From the NCBI GenBank assembly GCA_964517435.1, contig CAZFEC010000004.1, forward strand, positions 22,608-86,607: a stretch of 64,000 nt of DNA, in the 5' to 3' direction. This document shows positions 6,170 through 63,778 of this stretch, in pieces. The notes beneath the pieces were generated by a model, which saw only the letters and a list, made by a program, of their open reading frames with translations, did not search any database and was not told the origin of the DNA. Source of the DNA: an uncultured Bacteroidia bacterium. GTDB taxonomy: Bacteria; CAIWAD01; BS150m-G50. Position numbers and translations under genes: made by a program. The first letter of the stretch is position 1. Each line of letters starts with the position of its first letter.

Positions 6170-6793
6170 GTTGCCTCCTCTCTACCGTTGCTGATAGTGG
6201 TGAGAGTGATACCACCCTCCCCTGGCAGCTGGTCGCGTCGGCCCGTTCGTCCAGGTAGCATAGACCAAGTCCTTCTGTCGCTGCCAAACAGTTGGATTTG
6301 GCGGAAAGTGATGGCATACTGGCCTTGCATGCGGACGGTGTCGTGAGGGGAGGGTCGGTCTCTGGTTTCCTTCCTGTCCAGAAGGCCTTCCAATTCGGAA
6401 GGATGTGTCAGGTACCCACAGTACCGGAAGCACCGTTGATCATACCATTTTGATTTTAACCGTGTGCTGAATCATACCGTACAGAAAAAATCATTTTCGT
6501 CAGTAAAATCACTTCCAAAATATATCAAGCAAAGAGCGTGCCATATCGAATATGTAATATTATATTATTAACATAGGGAATATAAGACAACATCTGCAAA
6601 TATGCTGAAGCAGGAATCGAGGGCTATAATCGCGGAAACTGTTCAACGGTGCCAAATTCTGACCAAAGAGTGCCAGATGCTGATTGACAACTGGAAACCT
6701 CAAAAACAGTTGCAGGATCACCGGCGGGAATCTACATTTTGAGTTATGCTCATTCAGAATGTCTATCTTCAAAGGTACGGCGAGCATAACTTC

Positions 6794-6852
6794 ATAGTAT
6801 TTCCCGAAATACTATTATACTGGTAGGGCAGTTTAACTGGGAAATACTATAT
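6794..6852. promoter_or_regulatory. Inverted-repeat element ATAGTATTTCCC|GAAATACTAT plus a distal GGGAAATACTATA half-site (locus A of a 3-locus family)
   Basis: A perfect 10-bp inverted repeat with a 2-nt spacer. A second right half sits about 33 nt downstream. The element lies in the AT-rich region about 200 nt upstream of trxA. Confidence 0.5.
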
Positions 6853-15392: not shown

Positions 15393-15956
15393 ATGGCTAC
15401 TACAGCGGACTTTCGCAACGGGCTTACGATCGAACACAAGGGTAACCTGGTCAGTATCGTCGAGTTTCAGCATGTCAAACCGGGCAAGGGAGGCGCCTTC
15501 GTTCGCTCCAAGCTGAAGAATGTGCGGACCGGCCGGGTGGTGGAGCATACTTTCCGCGCCGGGGAAAAGGTGGAGGTGGTGCGTCTGACCAATCGCAAGA
15601 TGCAATACCTCTACCGCGACGGCACCGGCTTCAACTTCATGGATATGGAAACCTACAACCAGGTAGCCATTCCGGAGGAGCTGGTCGGCGATCAGGCGCG
15701 TTTCATGAAAGAGTCGGAAATGGTCGCTGTTTTGTATCACGGCGAAGAACCGCTGGGCGTGGAGATCCCCTTCCACGTGGAGCTGGAGGTCGTGAAGACC
15801 GATCCCGGCGTCAAAGGTGACACCGCCCAGGGCGGCACCAAGCCGGCCGAGCTGGAATCGGGCGCCGTGGTCCAGGTTCCGCTTTTCATCAATGAAGGGG
15901 ATGTCCTGCGTATCGATACCCGTACCGGCGAATACATGGAACGGGCCAAGAAATAG
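15393..15956 (+). CDS. efp: Elongation factor P
   Basis: Contains 'KPGKGGAFVRSKLKNVRTG'. Confidence 0.95.
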   Translation: MATTADFRNGLTIEHKGNLVSIVEFQHVKPGKGGAFVRSKLKNVRTGRVVEHTFRAGEKVEVVRLTNRKMQYLYRDGTGFNFMDMETYNQVAIPEELVGDQARFMKESEMVAVLYHGEEPLGVEIPFHVELEVVKTDPGVKGDTAQGGTKPAELESGAVVQVPLFINEGDVLRIDTRTGEYMERAKK

Positions 15957-53276: not shown

Positions 53277-54189
53277 GCCGCACTGCCTGATCCTTACCGG
53301 TCCCACCGGTGTGGGCAAGAGCGCTCTCGCGCTGCTGCTGGCCGAGGAGCTGAACGGCGAAATCGTTTCCGCCGATTCCCGCCAGGTATACCGCGGTTTT
53401 GATATCGGTACCGCTAAACCCACCCCGGCCGAGCTGGCCCGGATTCCCCACCACCAGATCGACACCCGCGATCCCGCCGAGGATTACAGCGCCGGTGAGT
53501 GGGCGCGTGATACAATTCCGATCGTACAGGCGATCCAGGACCGCGGCCGGCTGCCTTTGATCGTCGGCGGCTCAGGCTTCTACCTGGAAGCGTTGATCCA
53601 TCCGTTTTATACGATGAGCCCACAGCCGGGGGAACAGCGGGAAGCCCTCCTCCGGCAGTACACCGATCTGACCAACGAGCAGCTGCACGAGGAGCTGGAA
53701 CGCGTCGACCCCGATTCCGCCGCCGCCATCGCGGTGAACGATCGCCGCAAGCTGCTGCGCTACCTGGAGATCAGCAGCCTGGAAGGCGCTCCTCCCTCCG
53801 AGGTGTTTCAGCGTCCGGCGCTGCCGGCTGCCGTCACCTACACGCTGTTCGTGATACACACAGAGCGCGAGCTGCTCTACCGGCGCATCAACAGCCGCGT
53901 GGAAGAGATGATCGCCCGGGGGCTGGTGGATGAAGTCCGCAACCTGCTGGCAAGCGGCAGCCGTCCGGAGGACAACGCGATGCTGAGCGTCGGCTATCGC
54001 GAGATTGTATCACATCTTCAGGGGGAATCCACCCTGGCGGAGGCGGTCGCGGCGATTCAGAAAAACACCCGGAACTACGCCAAGCGCCAGCTGACCTGGT
54101 TCAAACGCTGGTCCGACGCCAGGTGGCTGGACTGCCCGGCCGAGACCACCATGGCGGAACTGGCCGCTCACCTGCGGAGGCAGTTTTGA
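53263..54189 (+). CDS. miaA: tRNA dimethylallyltransferase
   Basis: Contains 'ILTGPTGVGKSALAL'. Confidence 0.95.
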   Translation: MDAPKPHCLILTGPTGVGKSALALLLAEELNGEIVSADSRQVYRGFDIGTAKPTPAELARIPHHQIDTRDPAEDYSAGEWARDTIPIVQAIQDRGRLPLIVGGSGFYLEALIHPFYTMSPQPGEQREALLRQYTDLTNEQLHEELERVDPDSAAAIAVNDRRKLLRYLEISSLEGAPPSEVFQRPALPAAVTYTLFVIHTERELLYRRINSRVEEMIARGLVDEVRNLLASGSRPEDNAMLSVGYREIVSHLQGESTLAEAVAAIQKNTRNYAKRQLTWFKRWSDARWLDCPAETTMAELAAHLRRQF

Positions 54190-57737: not shown

Positions 57738-57806
57738 ACTTCGGAATCGGTATCGAAATCGGTATCGGAATTGGAACATCGATACCGATACCGAGGCCGA
57801 ATCCCG
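57738..57806. repeat. REP-like imperfect inverted repeat built from GGTATCGGAAT / ATTCCGATACC units
   Basis: It lies between the convergent alr and ssb genes. It belongs to the same family as the repeats at 61715-61922 and 62350-62433. It could form a long hairpin, so it is probably a bidirectional terminator. Confidence 0.6.
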
Positions 57807-57925
57807 ACTATTAGCGTCCATTCGCGGTTCTTTTGATGGACTTCAGATCGAGAATAAAAAAGGCTCCCGACGGGAGCCTTTCGTTATGCGCCCAACCCTT
57901 GCACAGGGCCAGGTGAAATTCGATT

Positions 57926-57982
57926 AATAGTATTTCCCACTTAGAAGGTCCTGGTTGTTCGCAACATTTCGAGAAATACTAT
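57926..57982. promoter_or_regulatory. Inverted-repeat element ATAGTATTTCCC-N32-GAGAAATACTAT (locus B)
   Basis: It has the same half-sites and about the same spacing as loci A and C. Confidence 0.5.
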
Positions 57983-58034
57983 GAAGTGATGCTCGCGATC
58001 GCTTCTGAAGAGGGACATTTTGTATGAGCATCAC

Positions 58035-60904: not shown

Positions 60905-60960
60905 TAGTATTTCTTAGCTGCTGCGAGACGTGGTGCCATTTCCTTTAGGGAAATACTATA
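60905..60960. promoter_or_regulatory. Inverted-repeat element TAGTATTTC-N34-GGGAAATACTATA (locus C)
   Basis: It lies in the intergenic region immediately upstream of the acpS-like ORF. Confidence 0.5.
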
Positions 60961-60998: not shown

Positions 60999-61697
60999 TC
61001 AACCGGCGGGCTGCGTATCGGCGTTGATCTTTTTGATCACGTCGCACAGATCAGCGATATCGTCCAGGATGTAGTCGGCGTGCGACTCCGGCGTGTCCAT
61101 GGTATCGCCGTACCTGGCGTAGGCGGTGATAATGTTGAGCAGCGCGGCGCCGGCGATGTCGCGTTCCATCCAGTCGCCGACCATGATCACTTCCTCCGGT
61201 GTCAACTCCAACCGCTCCAGCACTTTGAGGAACGGCGCGGCGTGCGGCTTGCGGTAGCCGGTATCTTCGAAGGTGATTACGGTGTCGAAGAAGTGCGGCA
61301 ACCCCAGCGCGGTCAGGCGCAGCCAGGCCTGCCGGGCGGGCGCGTCGGACAGGATCGCGAGCGAGAGCCCCCGTTTGATCAGCCAGCTGAGGGTGGAGCA
61401 GACATGCGGATACAATACCAGACTGGCTTCACGCGCCCGGCGGTAACCGATGATCGCCGCCGCCAGCATCCGATGATCGAGTTCTCCCAGCTCCTGCTGG
61501 AGAAAATGGTCGAAGACCTCCTGGTTTTCGATGTAGGTCTCGTTGTAGATCCCGTAGATCTTGTCGTATGCTTCCTGCAGACTCATCTGCAGCCCGGCGT
61601 CGATCATGGCCAGCGCGGCGCCTTTGATACTTGTATCCTTCATTGCCATGAAGTCAACGAGTGTATTGTCGAGGTCAAATATGACAGCTTTTATCAT
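60999..61697 (-). CDS. HAD-superfamily hydrolase
   Basis: Contains 'AVIFDLDNTLVDF' (DxDxT). Confidence 0.85.
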   Translation of the reverse strand: MIKAVIFDLDNTLVDFMAMKDTSIKGAALAMIDAGLQMSLQEAYDKIYGIYNETYIENQEVFDHFLQQELGELDHRMLAAAIIGYRRAREASLVLYPHVCSTLSWLIKRGLSLAILSDAPARQAWLRLTALGLPHFFDTVITFEDTGYRKPHAAPFLKVLERLELTPEEVIMVGDWMERDIAGAALLNIITAYARYGDTMDTPESHADYILDDIADLCDVIKKINADTQPAG

Positions 61698-61714: not shown

Positions 61715-61922
61715 CGATTCCGATCCCGATTCCGAATCCCGAGATTGTTCGGCCTCGGTATCGGAATTCGGTATCGTTCCCTATTCCGACTTGTTCGGCC
61801 TCGGTATCGGAATTCGGTATCGTTCCCTATTCCGACTTGTTCGGCCTCGGTATCGGAATTCGGTACCGTTCCCTATTCCGACTTGTTCGGCCTCGGTATC
61901 GGAAATCGGTATCGTTCCTTAC
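61715..61922. repeat. 46-bp tandem repeat (~4 units: TTGTTCGGCCTCGGTATCGGAATTCGGTATCGTTCCCTATTCCGAC) with 30-bp CGATTCCGATCCCGATTCCGAATCCCGAG leader
   Basis: The periodicity is directly visible. The + strand ORF-track entries 61561..61959 and 61703..61972 are translation artefacts of this array. Confidence 0.85.
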
Positions 61923-62333
61923 TCATCCTTCTTCTAGATCAGGATTGGTTTCGCCATAAAGGATTTCACTAGCTTCACGAACAGAATAACCTCTTCCGCC
62001 CAGTCTCGTCAACATGGCAACTATCCTGTCTAGAAGCTTTTTCCCTTCATGGTTCTTCTCCGAACTGATTGCGTTATAGATTTCCAGTACATCCTGAATC
62101 GCTGCGCATTCTAACGCAGAACTCCGAGCGATCTCGAAAAACCGACGTCTGTCTCCTTCTGTAACACGTCCGTTTCCTTCTGCGATGTTTAGCGAAATCG
62201 ATAGTGATGCACGTAATAGTTGATCCTTTGCATGACGATCTGTTCCACCCAGAGTGCCGCAATGGGAGTGAACCCATGAGTTATACTTGAGCGACACTTG
62301 ATAGACATCCAATGTCTCGTGACTGAAAGCCAT
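61923..62333 (-). CDS. Four-helix-bundle protein of the 23S rRNA-IVS/Avd-like family (PF05635-type)
   Basis: 136 aa. Family-typical 'SLSISLNIAEG' and 'RRRFFEIARSSALE' regions. The gene is about 45–48% GC against a ~65% surrounding. Confidence 0.65.
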   Translation of the reverse strand: MAFSHETLDVYQVSLKYNSWVHSHCGTLGGTDRHAKDQLLRASLSISLNIAEGNGRVTEGDRRRFFEIARSSALECAAIQDVLEIYNAISSEKNHEGKKLLDRIVAMLTRLGGRGYSVREASEILYGETNPDLEEG

Positions 62334-62349
62334 AAATAAGCTCTAAGAC

Positions 62350-62433
62350 CGATTCCGATCCCGATTCCGAATCCCGAGATTGTTCGGCCTCGGTATCGGA
62401 ATTCGGTATCGTTTCTTACTCATCCTTCTTCTT
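62350..62433. repeat. Single copy of the same leader + repeat unit + shared tail as 61715-61936
   Basis: Near-identical to the 5' leader and 3' tail of the tandem array. It overlaps the last 6 codons of the MCE gene. Confidence 0.8.
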
Positions 62434-63291
62434 ATGAAACCTGAACAGCCCATGCTCCGCGATTGCCCGCAGCAGTGAATCCAGCTCCGTGACGGCGGAG
62501 AGCGTCTGAATATACAGCGTGGAGTCGCCGGCAAGCTTCTGGAGCGTTCCCGGTTGCTGCAGGGCGGCGCGGACCTCCTCCAGGAGCAGGTCCAGATTCG
62601 CGGCGCTGCCGGTAGCGGTCGACAGCAATTCCCGCAGCGAAGGTCCGGTCTCGGCCAACAGGGTATCGGCGTCCGTCAACAGTCCGGTCAGTTGTCCGCT
62701 CAGGCGCGCGCGATCCCGCTCCAGATTGCCCAGCAGCTGTCGCGCCTCGCCCGTCAGCTGTTCGATGTCGGCCGCGATCCGGTGAAGCGGCAGCGGCTCC
62801 GTGGCAGCCGGCAGCAGCCCCTCCAGTTTGACCGCCAGGCGGTCGAGGCTGGTCAGCATACCCTGCGCCTGCTGCAGCAGCTCGTTTGTACCGGGTCTGT
62901 TTTCCCCCAGCCGGAGGCTGTCGGGGGAATGGAACGGCCCGCCGCTGCCGTTGAGGATAAAGACGGCGTGACCCCCCATCAGGTCGAGCGTTCCCAATTG
63001 AAAGCTGGCGTCCTGTGTCAGCGGCAGCTCGCGGGGCAGGCGCAGTTCCAGGAGCACGCGGTCCCGTTCCAGTTCGATATCGCTGACGCTGCCCACCACC
63101 ACTCCGTTCAGATAGACGGCGTCGCCGATACCGATACCGTCGCTGGTACTGAAAGCGACCCGGATGTCCTGGGTGTCGCGCCAGGGATTGAGACGCTGCC
63201 CCCACAGCAGGCCGCCGACCAGAATCAGGAGTCCGATCAGTCCCAGCAGCCCCGTGGTCAGCAGACTGGCTTGTCGTCGCGGTTCATTCAT
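62416..63291 (-). CDS. MCE/MlaD-family protein
   Basis: An N-terminal TM segment followed by an MCE domain ('IRVAFSTSDGIGIGDAVYLNGVVVGSV'). Start at 63291 (GGAGG + ATG). Confidence 0.8.
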   Translation of the reverse strand: MNEPRRQASLLTTGLLGLIGLLILVGGLLWGQRLNPWRDTQDIRVAFSTSDGIGIGDAVYLNGVVVGSVSDIELERDRVLLELRLPRELPLTQDASFQLGTLDLMGGHAVFILNGSGGPFHSPDSLRLGENRPGTNELLQQAQGMLTSLDRLAVKLEGLLPAATEPLPLHRIAADIEQLTGEARQLLGNLERDRARLSGQLTGLLTDADTLLAETGPSLRELLSTATGSAANLDLLLEEVRAALQQPGTLQKLAGDSTLYIQTLSAVTELDSLLRAIAEHGLFRFHKKKDE

Positions 63292-63778
63292 GCAGGAGTT
63301 CCTCCAGCAGGTAGCGATGGTTGCCCGGCAGGTCCTGGCAATAGATCTCGACATTCTGCGCGGCCAGATCCCGCAGAATGACCTCATCCCGGTCGCCCAG
63401 ATAGATATACGGCAGCAGCCGGCGGCTGCCTTCCACATGGTGGATACCGCCCAGGTTCAGCCGCTCGAAGCGGATTCCCGCCTCGAACAGCGATCGGGCC
63501 GCCGCGCAGTCGCGCAACACCAGCATCGTGCGGACCTCGAGGGTTGCTTCCCGCAGATAGGCCGCCGCAGCCGTCAGCGAAATCACCTGGCCCTGTTTGT
63601 CCTGCGGGATGCAGCTCAGGCAGAGTTCCCGTTCCAGCTCATCGCCGCTGATCTGGTCGTCCGCCAGCAGGAACTCCTCCACCGGCAATGTCTCACCCCA
63701 GCCGACGATAACGCAGCCATGCAGCAACCGGTCATCCACGCGGTAAATCGGATTCTCGAAACCGCCGCTCGCGATCAT
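63284..63778 (-). CDS. PTS EIIB component, mannose/sorbose family
   Basis: Contains a 'VDDRLLHGCVIVGW' region, which resembles the mannose-family EIIB phospho-His motif. 164 aa. Confidence 0.65.
   Translation of the reverse strand: MIASGGFENPIYRVDDRLLHGCVIVGWGETLPVEEFLLADDQISGDELERELCLSCIPQDKQGQVISLTAAAAYLREATLEVRTMLVLRDCAAARSLFEAGIRFERLNLGGIHHVEGSRRLLPYIYLGDRDEVILRDLAAQNVEIYCQDLPGNHRYLLEELLHE

Follow-up and report, generated by a model that had tools for sequence, protein, structure and literature searches.

Organization of the locus

The window analyzed in the present study is a stretch of 64,000 nucleotides from an uncultured Bacteroidia bacterium (assembly GCA_964517435.1, contig CAZFEC010000004.1, positions 22,608 to 86,607), and the subject of this report is a small cassette within it that carries an open reading frame (ORF) for a four-helix-bundle (4HB) protein. 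The gene order around the cassette on the minus strand is PTS-IIB (63284-63778), MlaD/MCE, the 4HB ORF, and a HAD hydrolase. An earlier note on this DNA described a 411-bp 4HB gene of low GC content bracketed by direct repeats. This description is correct: the repeat, designated R, occupies 62350-62432 on the right and 61715-61935 on the left. Read in the sense direction, the blocks follow the order T1, P1, Q1, core C, T2, P2, three q-P units, and Q2, with the coordinates listed below.

62416-63291, minus strand: MlaD/MCE-family gene, 291 aa (PF02470, 44.7 bits); the right repeat copy covers its final 6 codons and the stop
62350-62432, minus strand: right copy of direct repeat R, 83 bp (T1-P1-Q1), predicted to fold alone as a hairpin
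62415-62432, minus strand: T1, the 18-nt tail AGAAGAAGGATGAGTAAG, the native 3' end of MlaD
62380-62414, minus strand: P1, an NNCGAY-type arm plus CCGAACAA
62350-62379, minus strand: Q1, an RTCGNN-type arm
61936-62349, minus strand: unique 414-bp core C between the repeats, comprising 4HB codons 1-132 behind a 16-nt leader (start codon ATG at 62333; GC 45.7%)
61923-62333, minus strand: 4HB ORF (PF05635/TIGR02436), 136 aa, 411 bp; T2 provides the final 13 nt together with the stop
61918-61935, minus strand: T2, the second MlaD tail, placed after the 4HB core and ahead of the 3' arm; it supplies LEEG-TGA
61715-61935, minus strand: left, expanded copy of R, 221 bp (T2, P2, three 46-bp units, Q2)
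61883-61917, minus strand: P2
61745-61882, minus strand: three 46-bp q-P units
61715-61744, minus strand: Q2, identical to Q1
61883-62379, minus strand: the cassette in family terms, 497 bp (Q1, leader, 4HB ORF, T2, P2), as delimited by comparison with approximately 85 homologous loci
60999-61697, minus strand: HAD-family hydrolase gene, 3' of the cassette (PF00702, 104.5 bits), with synteny conserved in relatives

The left copy of R consists of the 83 bp of the right copy and three additional 46-bp units, and Tandem Repeats Finder reported 61745-61918 as an array with a period of 46, 3.8 copies and 97% matches. P is an array of the NNCGAY type followed by GGCCGAACAA, and Q is of the complementary RTCGNN type (TCTCGGGATTCGGAATCGGGATCGGAATCG). 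The copies of P differ by at most 1-2 bases, and the other sub-blocks of the repeat are identical or one base apart. When the window was shuffled 100 times, none of three test patterns matched as often as observed. Both repeat copies terminate in CGTTYCTTACTCATCCTTCTTCT, and it was previously pointed out that this shared tail ends two genes in different frames, as is indeed the case: on the minus strand, it reads AAG AAG AAG GAT GAG TAA (KKKDE*) in the MlaD frame and CTA GAA GAA GGA TGA (LEEG*) in the 4HB frame.

The locus as a whole amounts to 1.17 copies of the 497-bp unit. Independent metagenome assemblies of this organism, made from other samples (L001, L087, L088, and L089), show the same arrangement, while a single 644-nt contig of this organism (L002) carries one 46-bp unit fewer, which could be an assembly collapse. 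No promoter- or terminator-like site was detected between the genes on the coding strand of the locus, and the cassette is probably devoid of its own promoter and transcribed with the host genes. No Rfam family, rRNA included, reached its gathering score in the window; nor did any in 14 homologous loci, and the low-threshold hits (E 0.25-2.9) were far below gathering.

Identity and composition of the 4HB gene

In profile searches, the 4HB ORF scored 65.6 bits against TIGR02436 (cut-off 24) and, in the hidden Markov model check that had been proposed, 68.8 bits against PF05635 (cut-off 33.8). The GC content is 46% in the 4HB gene, 61% in the window, and 59-65% in the adjacent genes. The earlier figure of approximately 20 percentage points is roughly right for overall GC; it understates the gap at the codon level, at which GC in third positions (GC3) is 39% in the 4HB gene and 79-80% in the HAD, MlaD, and PTS-IIB genes. 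Because its GC3 is 39% against approximately 79% in its neighbors, the 4HB gene is compositionally foreign, and the composition check suggested for foreign origin gave a positive answer.

An AlphaFold (AF2) monomer model of the 4HB protein, based on an alignment with 22 homologues, had a pLDDT of 82, with helices at residues 5-25, 30-54, 59-85, and 91-111 and disorder from residue 117. The top Foldseek matches to this model were 2gsc and 2rld (TM 0.75/0.90 in both cases), followed by the Avd structures 8ub7 and 4dwl, for which the TM score was 0.67-0.70 to the query and approximately 0.8 to the target at an identity of 9-10%. The protein belongs to the PF05635 family and is predicted from the model to be an Avd-like up-down four-helix bundle, in agreement with the original description of a foreign, Avd-like bundle. 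Avd binds reverse transcriptase (RT) and RNA in diversity-generating retroelements (DGRs); the homology to it is a functional lead and not a result. The 4HB ORF is the sole ORF in the unit, in which neither a transposase nor an integrase is encoded; the locus is not an autonomous transposon.

A family of cassettes with inverted hexamer arrays

Homologues of the 4HB protein at 55-73% identity were 118-209 aa long, with additional residues that read GIGIGI where the N-terminus was miscalled and DTDTDTD at the C-terminal end. A scan in which each species was represented by a single genome yielded more than 570 relatives, and the best 80 of these were examined for lineage. These 80 showed 51-68% protein identity and came from genomes named under approximately two dozen lineages, including Verrucomicrobiota, Lentisphaerae, Acidobacteriota, Desulfobacterales, and Chromatiaceae as well as Nitrospirota, Fibrobacter, Chitinophagales, Myxococcota, and Chloroflexi-type Ardenticatenaceae. 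Approximately 4,000 clusters at 50% identity make up the wider PF05635-type family. Several homologous loci with inspected gene tables were flanked by unrelated housekeeping genes.

The approximately 85 loci compared share a common architecture, in which a 5' (RTCGNN)n array is followed by the ORF and a complementary 3' (NNCGAY)n array that is read as an Asp-X tail. The 5' array ends at a median of 16.5 nt before the ATG, and the 3' array starts near codon 120. Visual inspection and pattern mapping located the arms in approximately 75 of the 85 loci. Complementarity was assessed with an ungapped stem score instead of RNAduplex energies, the contrast of which was noisy because GC-rich host flanks score well too; a score of at least 15 was obtained at 62 of 82 loci and at none of 72 displaced-flank controls, with a median stem of 28 bp. 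At 57 of 73 loci, the ORF already contains the start of the 3' arm, which is in the Asp frame in 55 of these 57; therefore, one arm of the stem also encodes the acidic tail. With a crude ORF call, the neighbors were co-oriented with the 4HB gene at 59 of 73 loci upstream and 57 of 77 downstream. Hexamer arrays were 8-fold denser beside 4HB genes (1.32 vs 0.159 per kb). The inverted pair of hexamer arrays around the ORF is thus a family-wide signature, which was overlooked by the earlier note.

Two variations within the family were also observed. A subfamily (L023, L038, L055, L066, and L079) carries a conserved module of approximately 55 nt 3' of the 3' arm, of the form ..AAATCCCAACAAACGG..CGCTCATTCTTCGCGCCGGTGA..CGTT with the outer pairing GTTGGGA/TCCCAAC, which is often read through within the ORF. 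Many relatives (P0126, P0131, P0133, and others) are approximately 250 aa long and consist of two tandem four-helix-bundle domains.

The searched full-text literature, which did not extend to most subscription journals, contained no account of 4HB cassettes with hexamer arms outside rRNA. The novelty of a hexamer-armed 4HB cassette family outside rRNA is, on this basis, provisional.

Evidence for mobility

The GC content of the cassettes (0.43-0.65) followed that of their hosts (0.39-0.72) with a slope of only 0.43. One metagenome-assembled genome (MAG; CAWGLD01) contains four 100%-identical units of approximately 700 bp (L045, L046, L047, and L050). The ends of these units are sharp (GGCTTTTCTCC...GGAGAAGAACC) and bear imperfect 11-bp terminal inverted repeats, and the units are bordered by 8-bp AT-rich target duplications. 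A 112-bp nested insertion lies between the ORF and the 3' arm in three of these four units. In another MAG, three copies are 98-99% identical over approximately 545 bp, from GTTGGGGC before the 5' arm to approximately 70 nt past the 3' arm; as this identity extends over both arms, the arms travel with the ORF.

Variant forms were also detected. Cassettes are arranged head to tail at L006 and at L024 (two complete, 225-1263), and the start of one element abuts the end of another at L063. An in-frame internal deletion removes residues 30-100 and leaves the arms intact at L039 (1200-1444), and an arm is followed by a 5'-deleted ORF at L022 (3480-3563). In the contig of the closest relative (L116, 73% identity), nt 1-127 are identical to nt 666-792, a length equal to the assembler's k, and these identical ends imply a 665-bp circle or a tandem in that sample.

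At approximately 12 of 86 loci, the cassette is bordered by direct repeats of 65-130 nt, the period being 470-670 bp. At L025, both sides of the cassette carry the first 83-84 nt of a host radical-SAM gene that lies downstream (70-153 and 646-729); the two copies are 86% identical with mostly synonymous differences, which is a close parallel to the 83-bp repeat of the window with its host-gene end. No relatives were found on plasmids or phages with tblastn or on IMG/VR contigs with a pattern scan.

Origin of the 18-nt tail

A collection of metagenome contigs contained no match to MlaD. A protein search with MlaD returned matches of 100% identity and then of 62% (a Candidatus Delongbacteria MAG), 58%, and 57%, and the surrounding genes were recovered for the 62% and 57% relatives. 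In these two nearest lineages, the gene row XerC-HPF-HprK-EIIA-EIIB-MlaD-(gap)-HAD-x-YjeF is conserved, and the MlaD-HAD gap is free of the 4HB cassette. The gap itself is a hot spot, containing a BrnT/BrnA toxin-antitoxin pair in one lineage and an opposite-strand multihaem cytochrome in the other (L090, 3880-5051; L093, 3877-6266).

The cassette-free MlaD orthologues end in GLFRFHKKKDK* and GLFRFHKKRD*, and the MlaD of the window in GLFRFHKKKDE*. Since orthologues next to no cassette end in KKKDK* or KKRD*, the 18-nt tail is MlaD's own 3' end and T2 a duplicated piece of the host gene; the tail does not occur elsewhere in the 64-kb window. The idea of a REP-like (repetitive extragenic palindrome-like) element that brings stop codons to two genes is thereby not supported, and the stops in two frames would be a by-product of local duplication. 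A duplication linked to the cassette had been the second alternative of the earlier note and fits the data best. If T2 was removed, the 4HB ORF would run on in frame as ..NPDLNDTDF..; the 4HB protein of the window lacks the Asp-X tail of its family because T2 intervenes.

Hairpins and solo copies

The 65 nt of the 83-bp repeat that are not tail form a hairpin of hexamer arrays. Within the right copy of R, P followed by Q is predicted to fold with -34.1 kcal/mol (z -4.3). A Q1 x P2 duplex across the ORF has a predicted energy of -32.7 kcal/mol, and local pairing of P1 with Q1 is equally stable; the whole 741-nt sense transcript folds with a z of -7.4.

Hexamer hairpins occur at two sites in the 64 kb, namely, the 4HB locus and the following feature.

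57741-57807, plus strand: ORF-less solo hexamer hairpin (arm, 7-12-nt loop, arm'), -30.1 kcal/mol, z -5.5

This solo hairpin begins 16 nt after the alr stop and has CCGATACCGAGGCCGAA in common with the P of R. A terminator-like hairpin lies beyond it at approximately 57858-57885. In the flanks of homologous loci, solo hairpins were found approximately once per 12 kb, and they behave like MITE-type (miniature inverted-repeat transposable element) or REP-type derivatives. The nine exact matches to CCGATACCGAGGCCGAACAA in a collection of metagenome contigs that does not include this organism were all in unrelated coding sequences. The resemblance to Correia- and REP-like elements that had been proposed is, thus, divided: it fails for the stop-bearing tail, which is the native end of MlaD, and stands for the remaining 65 nt, with their hexamer-array hairpin and its solo relative.

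Interpretation of the locus

We consider it probable that the locus is a horizontally acquired small selfish cassette embedded in hairpin-forming 6-nt arrays, and that the stops in two frames are secondary. The cassette would have entered the variable MlaD-HAD spacer of an operon-like conserved gene row, and the 83-bp direct repeat would have been made at this site. Two histories may be envisaged. In one, a resident T-P-Q hairpin followed MlaD, comparable to the solo hairpin after alr, and insertion of the core produced a long target duplication; however, the landing of an armless core exactly where the arms of the family belong stays unexplained. In the other, a tandem array of cassettes in the spacer mostly collapsed to hairpins, and P-to-P repair or recombination copied 18 nt of MlaD before P2; however, this requires a templated 18-nt patch. 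In either case, the 46-bp sub-unit may later have been expanded by slippage, to which the one-unit difference in L002 is the only pointer, and T2 would truncate the acidic tail of the 4HB protein. By analogy with Coxiella's intervening sequence (IVS), the cassette may be co-transcribed with the host genes and cleaved in its paired arms, which could form local hairpins or a stem across the ORF, similar to the S23p-carrying 23S rRNA IVS.

Several points weigh against this interpretation. The comparison with related genomes that had been called for revealed the gap of the two nearest lineages to be free of the 4HB gene; however, MlaD matches show either 100% identity or no more than 62%, and with no relative in between to offer an empty site at the nucleotide level, the sequence of events is deduced. 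The inverted complementarity score of the window is 13.5, which is below the family norm, against a direct repeat score of 47, and the arms that flank the core could be a resident hairpin and not cargo. Mismatches in the arms comprised 80 G-U and 97 A-C pairs (p = 0.23), with no G-U excess in the sense strand; therefore, nothing favors a role of the stem at the RNA level over one at the DNA level, and arm complementarity may serve at the latter.

Among the alternatives, it is unlikely that a circular or tandem unit of approximately 0.5 kb was integrated by recombination within the repeat, or was copied over more than one unit length from a circular template. The 1.17 unit copies of the window, the identical 127-nt ends of L116, the head-to-tail cassettes at L024 and L006, and the start-end junction at L063 would all be expected from such a process, but the redundancy includes 18 nt of the host MlaD, so that the unit must first have formed at this locus, and chromosomal direct repeats also give terminal overlaps of short contigs, as in L002 of this organism. 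Slightly more doubtful is a dispersed REP- or Correia-like element with multi-frame stops that overlaps gene 3' ends, with the 4HB gene merely lying between two of its copies. The stable hairpin of the 65-nt part, the related hairpin 16 nt after alr, and the frequency of solo hairpins in the flanks of homologous loci speak for such an element, whereas neither the solo hairpin nor any other part of the window contains the stop-bearing tail, this tail encodes the conserved C-terminus of MlaD, and the arrays are not only concentrated next to 4HB genes but in a fixed register with the ORF. We give the same limited credence to a further reading, according to which hexamer-armed 4HB cassettes are unrecognized small mobile elements with the Avd-like protein itself as the mobility factor. 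The 4HB protein might then, for example, recruit an RT or nuclease in trans to a stem-bracketed transcript or to hairpin DNA, and insertion would proceed via unit-length circular or multimeric intermediates or widely staggered nicks. Target or terminal duplications of 65-130 bp would result (83 bp in the window and 84 bp of a host gene at L025; also L084, L041, and L116), and the solo hairpins would be non-autonomous derivatives.

A degenerate or split DGR, of which the 4HB gene would be a leftover Avd gene or the partner of an RT elsewhere, is highly improbable. Avd resembles the Pfam family PF05635 (PMC10053308), and the 4HB model superposes on Avd in the DGR ribonucleoprotein with a TM score of approximately 0.67-0.70; however, the closest structures are free-standing proteins of the S23p type (2gsc and 2rld), identity to Avd is 9-10%, the inspected homologous loci sit between unrelated housekeeping genes, and the phage, plasmid, and IMG/VR collections contained no relatives. 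The window has no RT-like ORF, in that no ORF of at least 200 aa carries both YxDD and G..SQ motifs, which is a weak test for RT. Apart from the repeats on either side of the 4HB gene, the 64 kb contain no significant long repeat and no template/variable repeat pair, and no RT domain was found by Pfam in the genes called in the orthologous stretch, which covers approximately 3 kb on each side of MlaD. The earlier statement that this is not a complete DGR is borne out. The least credible explanation is that a normal resident gene happens to lie in an intergenic tandem repeat prone to slippage, without any mobile element. The number of 46-bp units does vary between assemblies and every sampled contig of the organism carries the insertion, but the GC3 of the gene is approximately 40 points below that of its neighbors, relatives lack the gene in the syntenic gap, and the same unit of ORF plus arms recurs in unrelated genomes and contexts.

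Comparison with known systems

The closest known relative of the cassette is the S23p-encoding IVS found in the 23S rRNA of Coxiella burnetii, Leptospira, Haemophilus, and Brucella. The Coxiella IVS is a 428-nt sequence with an S23p ORF, a stem that is cut by RNase III, a GC content below that of the host, and three copies of the heptamer GACAGAT directly upstream of the ATG (PMC4990558). Both the IVS and the cassette (428 nt vs 497 bp) encode a PF05635 four-helix-bundle protein, carry short tandem repeats before the ATG, and have a repeat number that varies between strains; moreover, both show a GC content deviating from that of the host and a sporadic, horizontally patterned distribution without a transposase (PMC4990558). 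The ends of the IVS pair into a stem around the ORF, and those of the cassettes do so at 62 of 82 loci in the family; in the window, Q1 and P2 may pair in this way, but the local P1 x Q1 hairpin is equally stable and the ungapped score is low. In contrast to the IVS, the cassette lies between the protein-coding genes MlaD and HAD in a window without rRNA (Rfam), and its arms are long hexamer arrays with a CGA/TCG core, the 3' array of which is usually translated as Asp-X. Its family also includes ORF-less derivatives, tandem copies, and long flanking direct repeats. Excision by RNase III has been shown for the IVS and is a prediction for the cassette.

With Avd, the 4HB protein shares a four-helix-bundle fold and the small size of a protein in a mobile or selfish context; it differs in the low identity noted above, in having no adjacent RT, template, or variable repeat, and in the lack of phage or plasmid relatives in the collections searched. 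Similar to MITEs, REP doublets (REPINs), and Correia elements, the family includes short intergenic hairpins near gene ends, several per genome. Also as in such elements, these apparently originate from a longer coding element by internal deletion (L039), and a terminal inverted repeat with an 8-bp target duplication is seen in one genome. Unlike in these elements, the parent element is without a recognizable transposase or REP-associated tyrosine transposase (RAYT), and the arms are internally periodic (6 nt) instead of being unique inverted repeats. In further contrast, the stop-codon tail of the window is host and not element sequence.

Other features of the window

An intergenic motif, GAAATACTAT, recurs at 6780-6850, 57966-57996, and approximately 60945-60960, and it includes a 31-nt inverted match of 94% between 6780-6810 and 57966-57996. 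This motif could act as a promoter or operator in this organism. Two low-GC3 ORFs from a crude gene call (15446-15817 and 53511-53930) had no Pfam match and, from a reading of the DNA, would be wrong-frame calls; the host genes concerned look like efp and miaA, names that were confirmed by no search.

Significance

The function of S23p/IVP and the spread of S23p-bearing intervening sequences have been open questions since the 1990s. The cassettes described here provide experimental handles on them, including defined ends, near-identical multi-copy units, tandem and deletion forms, and an acidic tail encoded by an arm, and cultivable carriers exist in Pelovirga terrestris (L037), Thiorhodococcus mannitoliphagus DSM 18266 (L010), and Kiritimatiellaeota B1221 (L067). 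The family also explains a practical nuisance, in that assemblies break at these loci and ORF calls extend through the arms as GIGIGI or DTDTDT artefacts. The message of the window itself is modest, because the repeat with stops in two frames would be a side effect of local duplication. If the architecture is general, the rRNA IVS would be the visible tip of a very large family of intergenic cassettes of approximately 0.5 kb.

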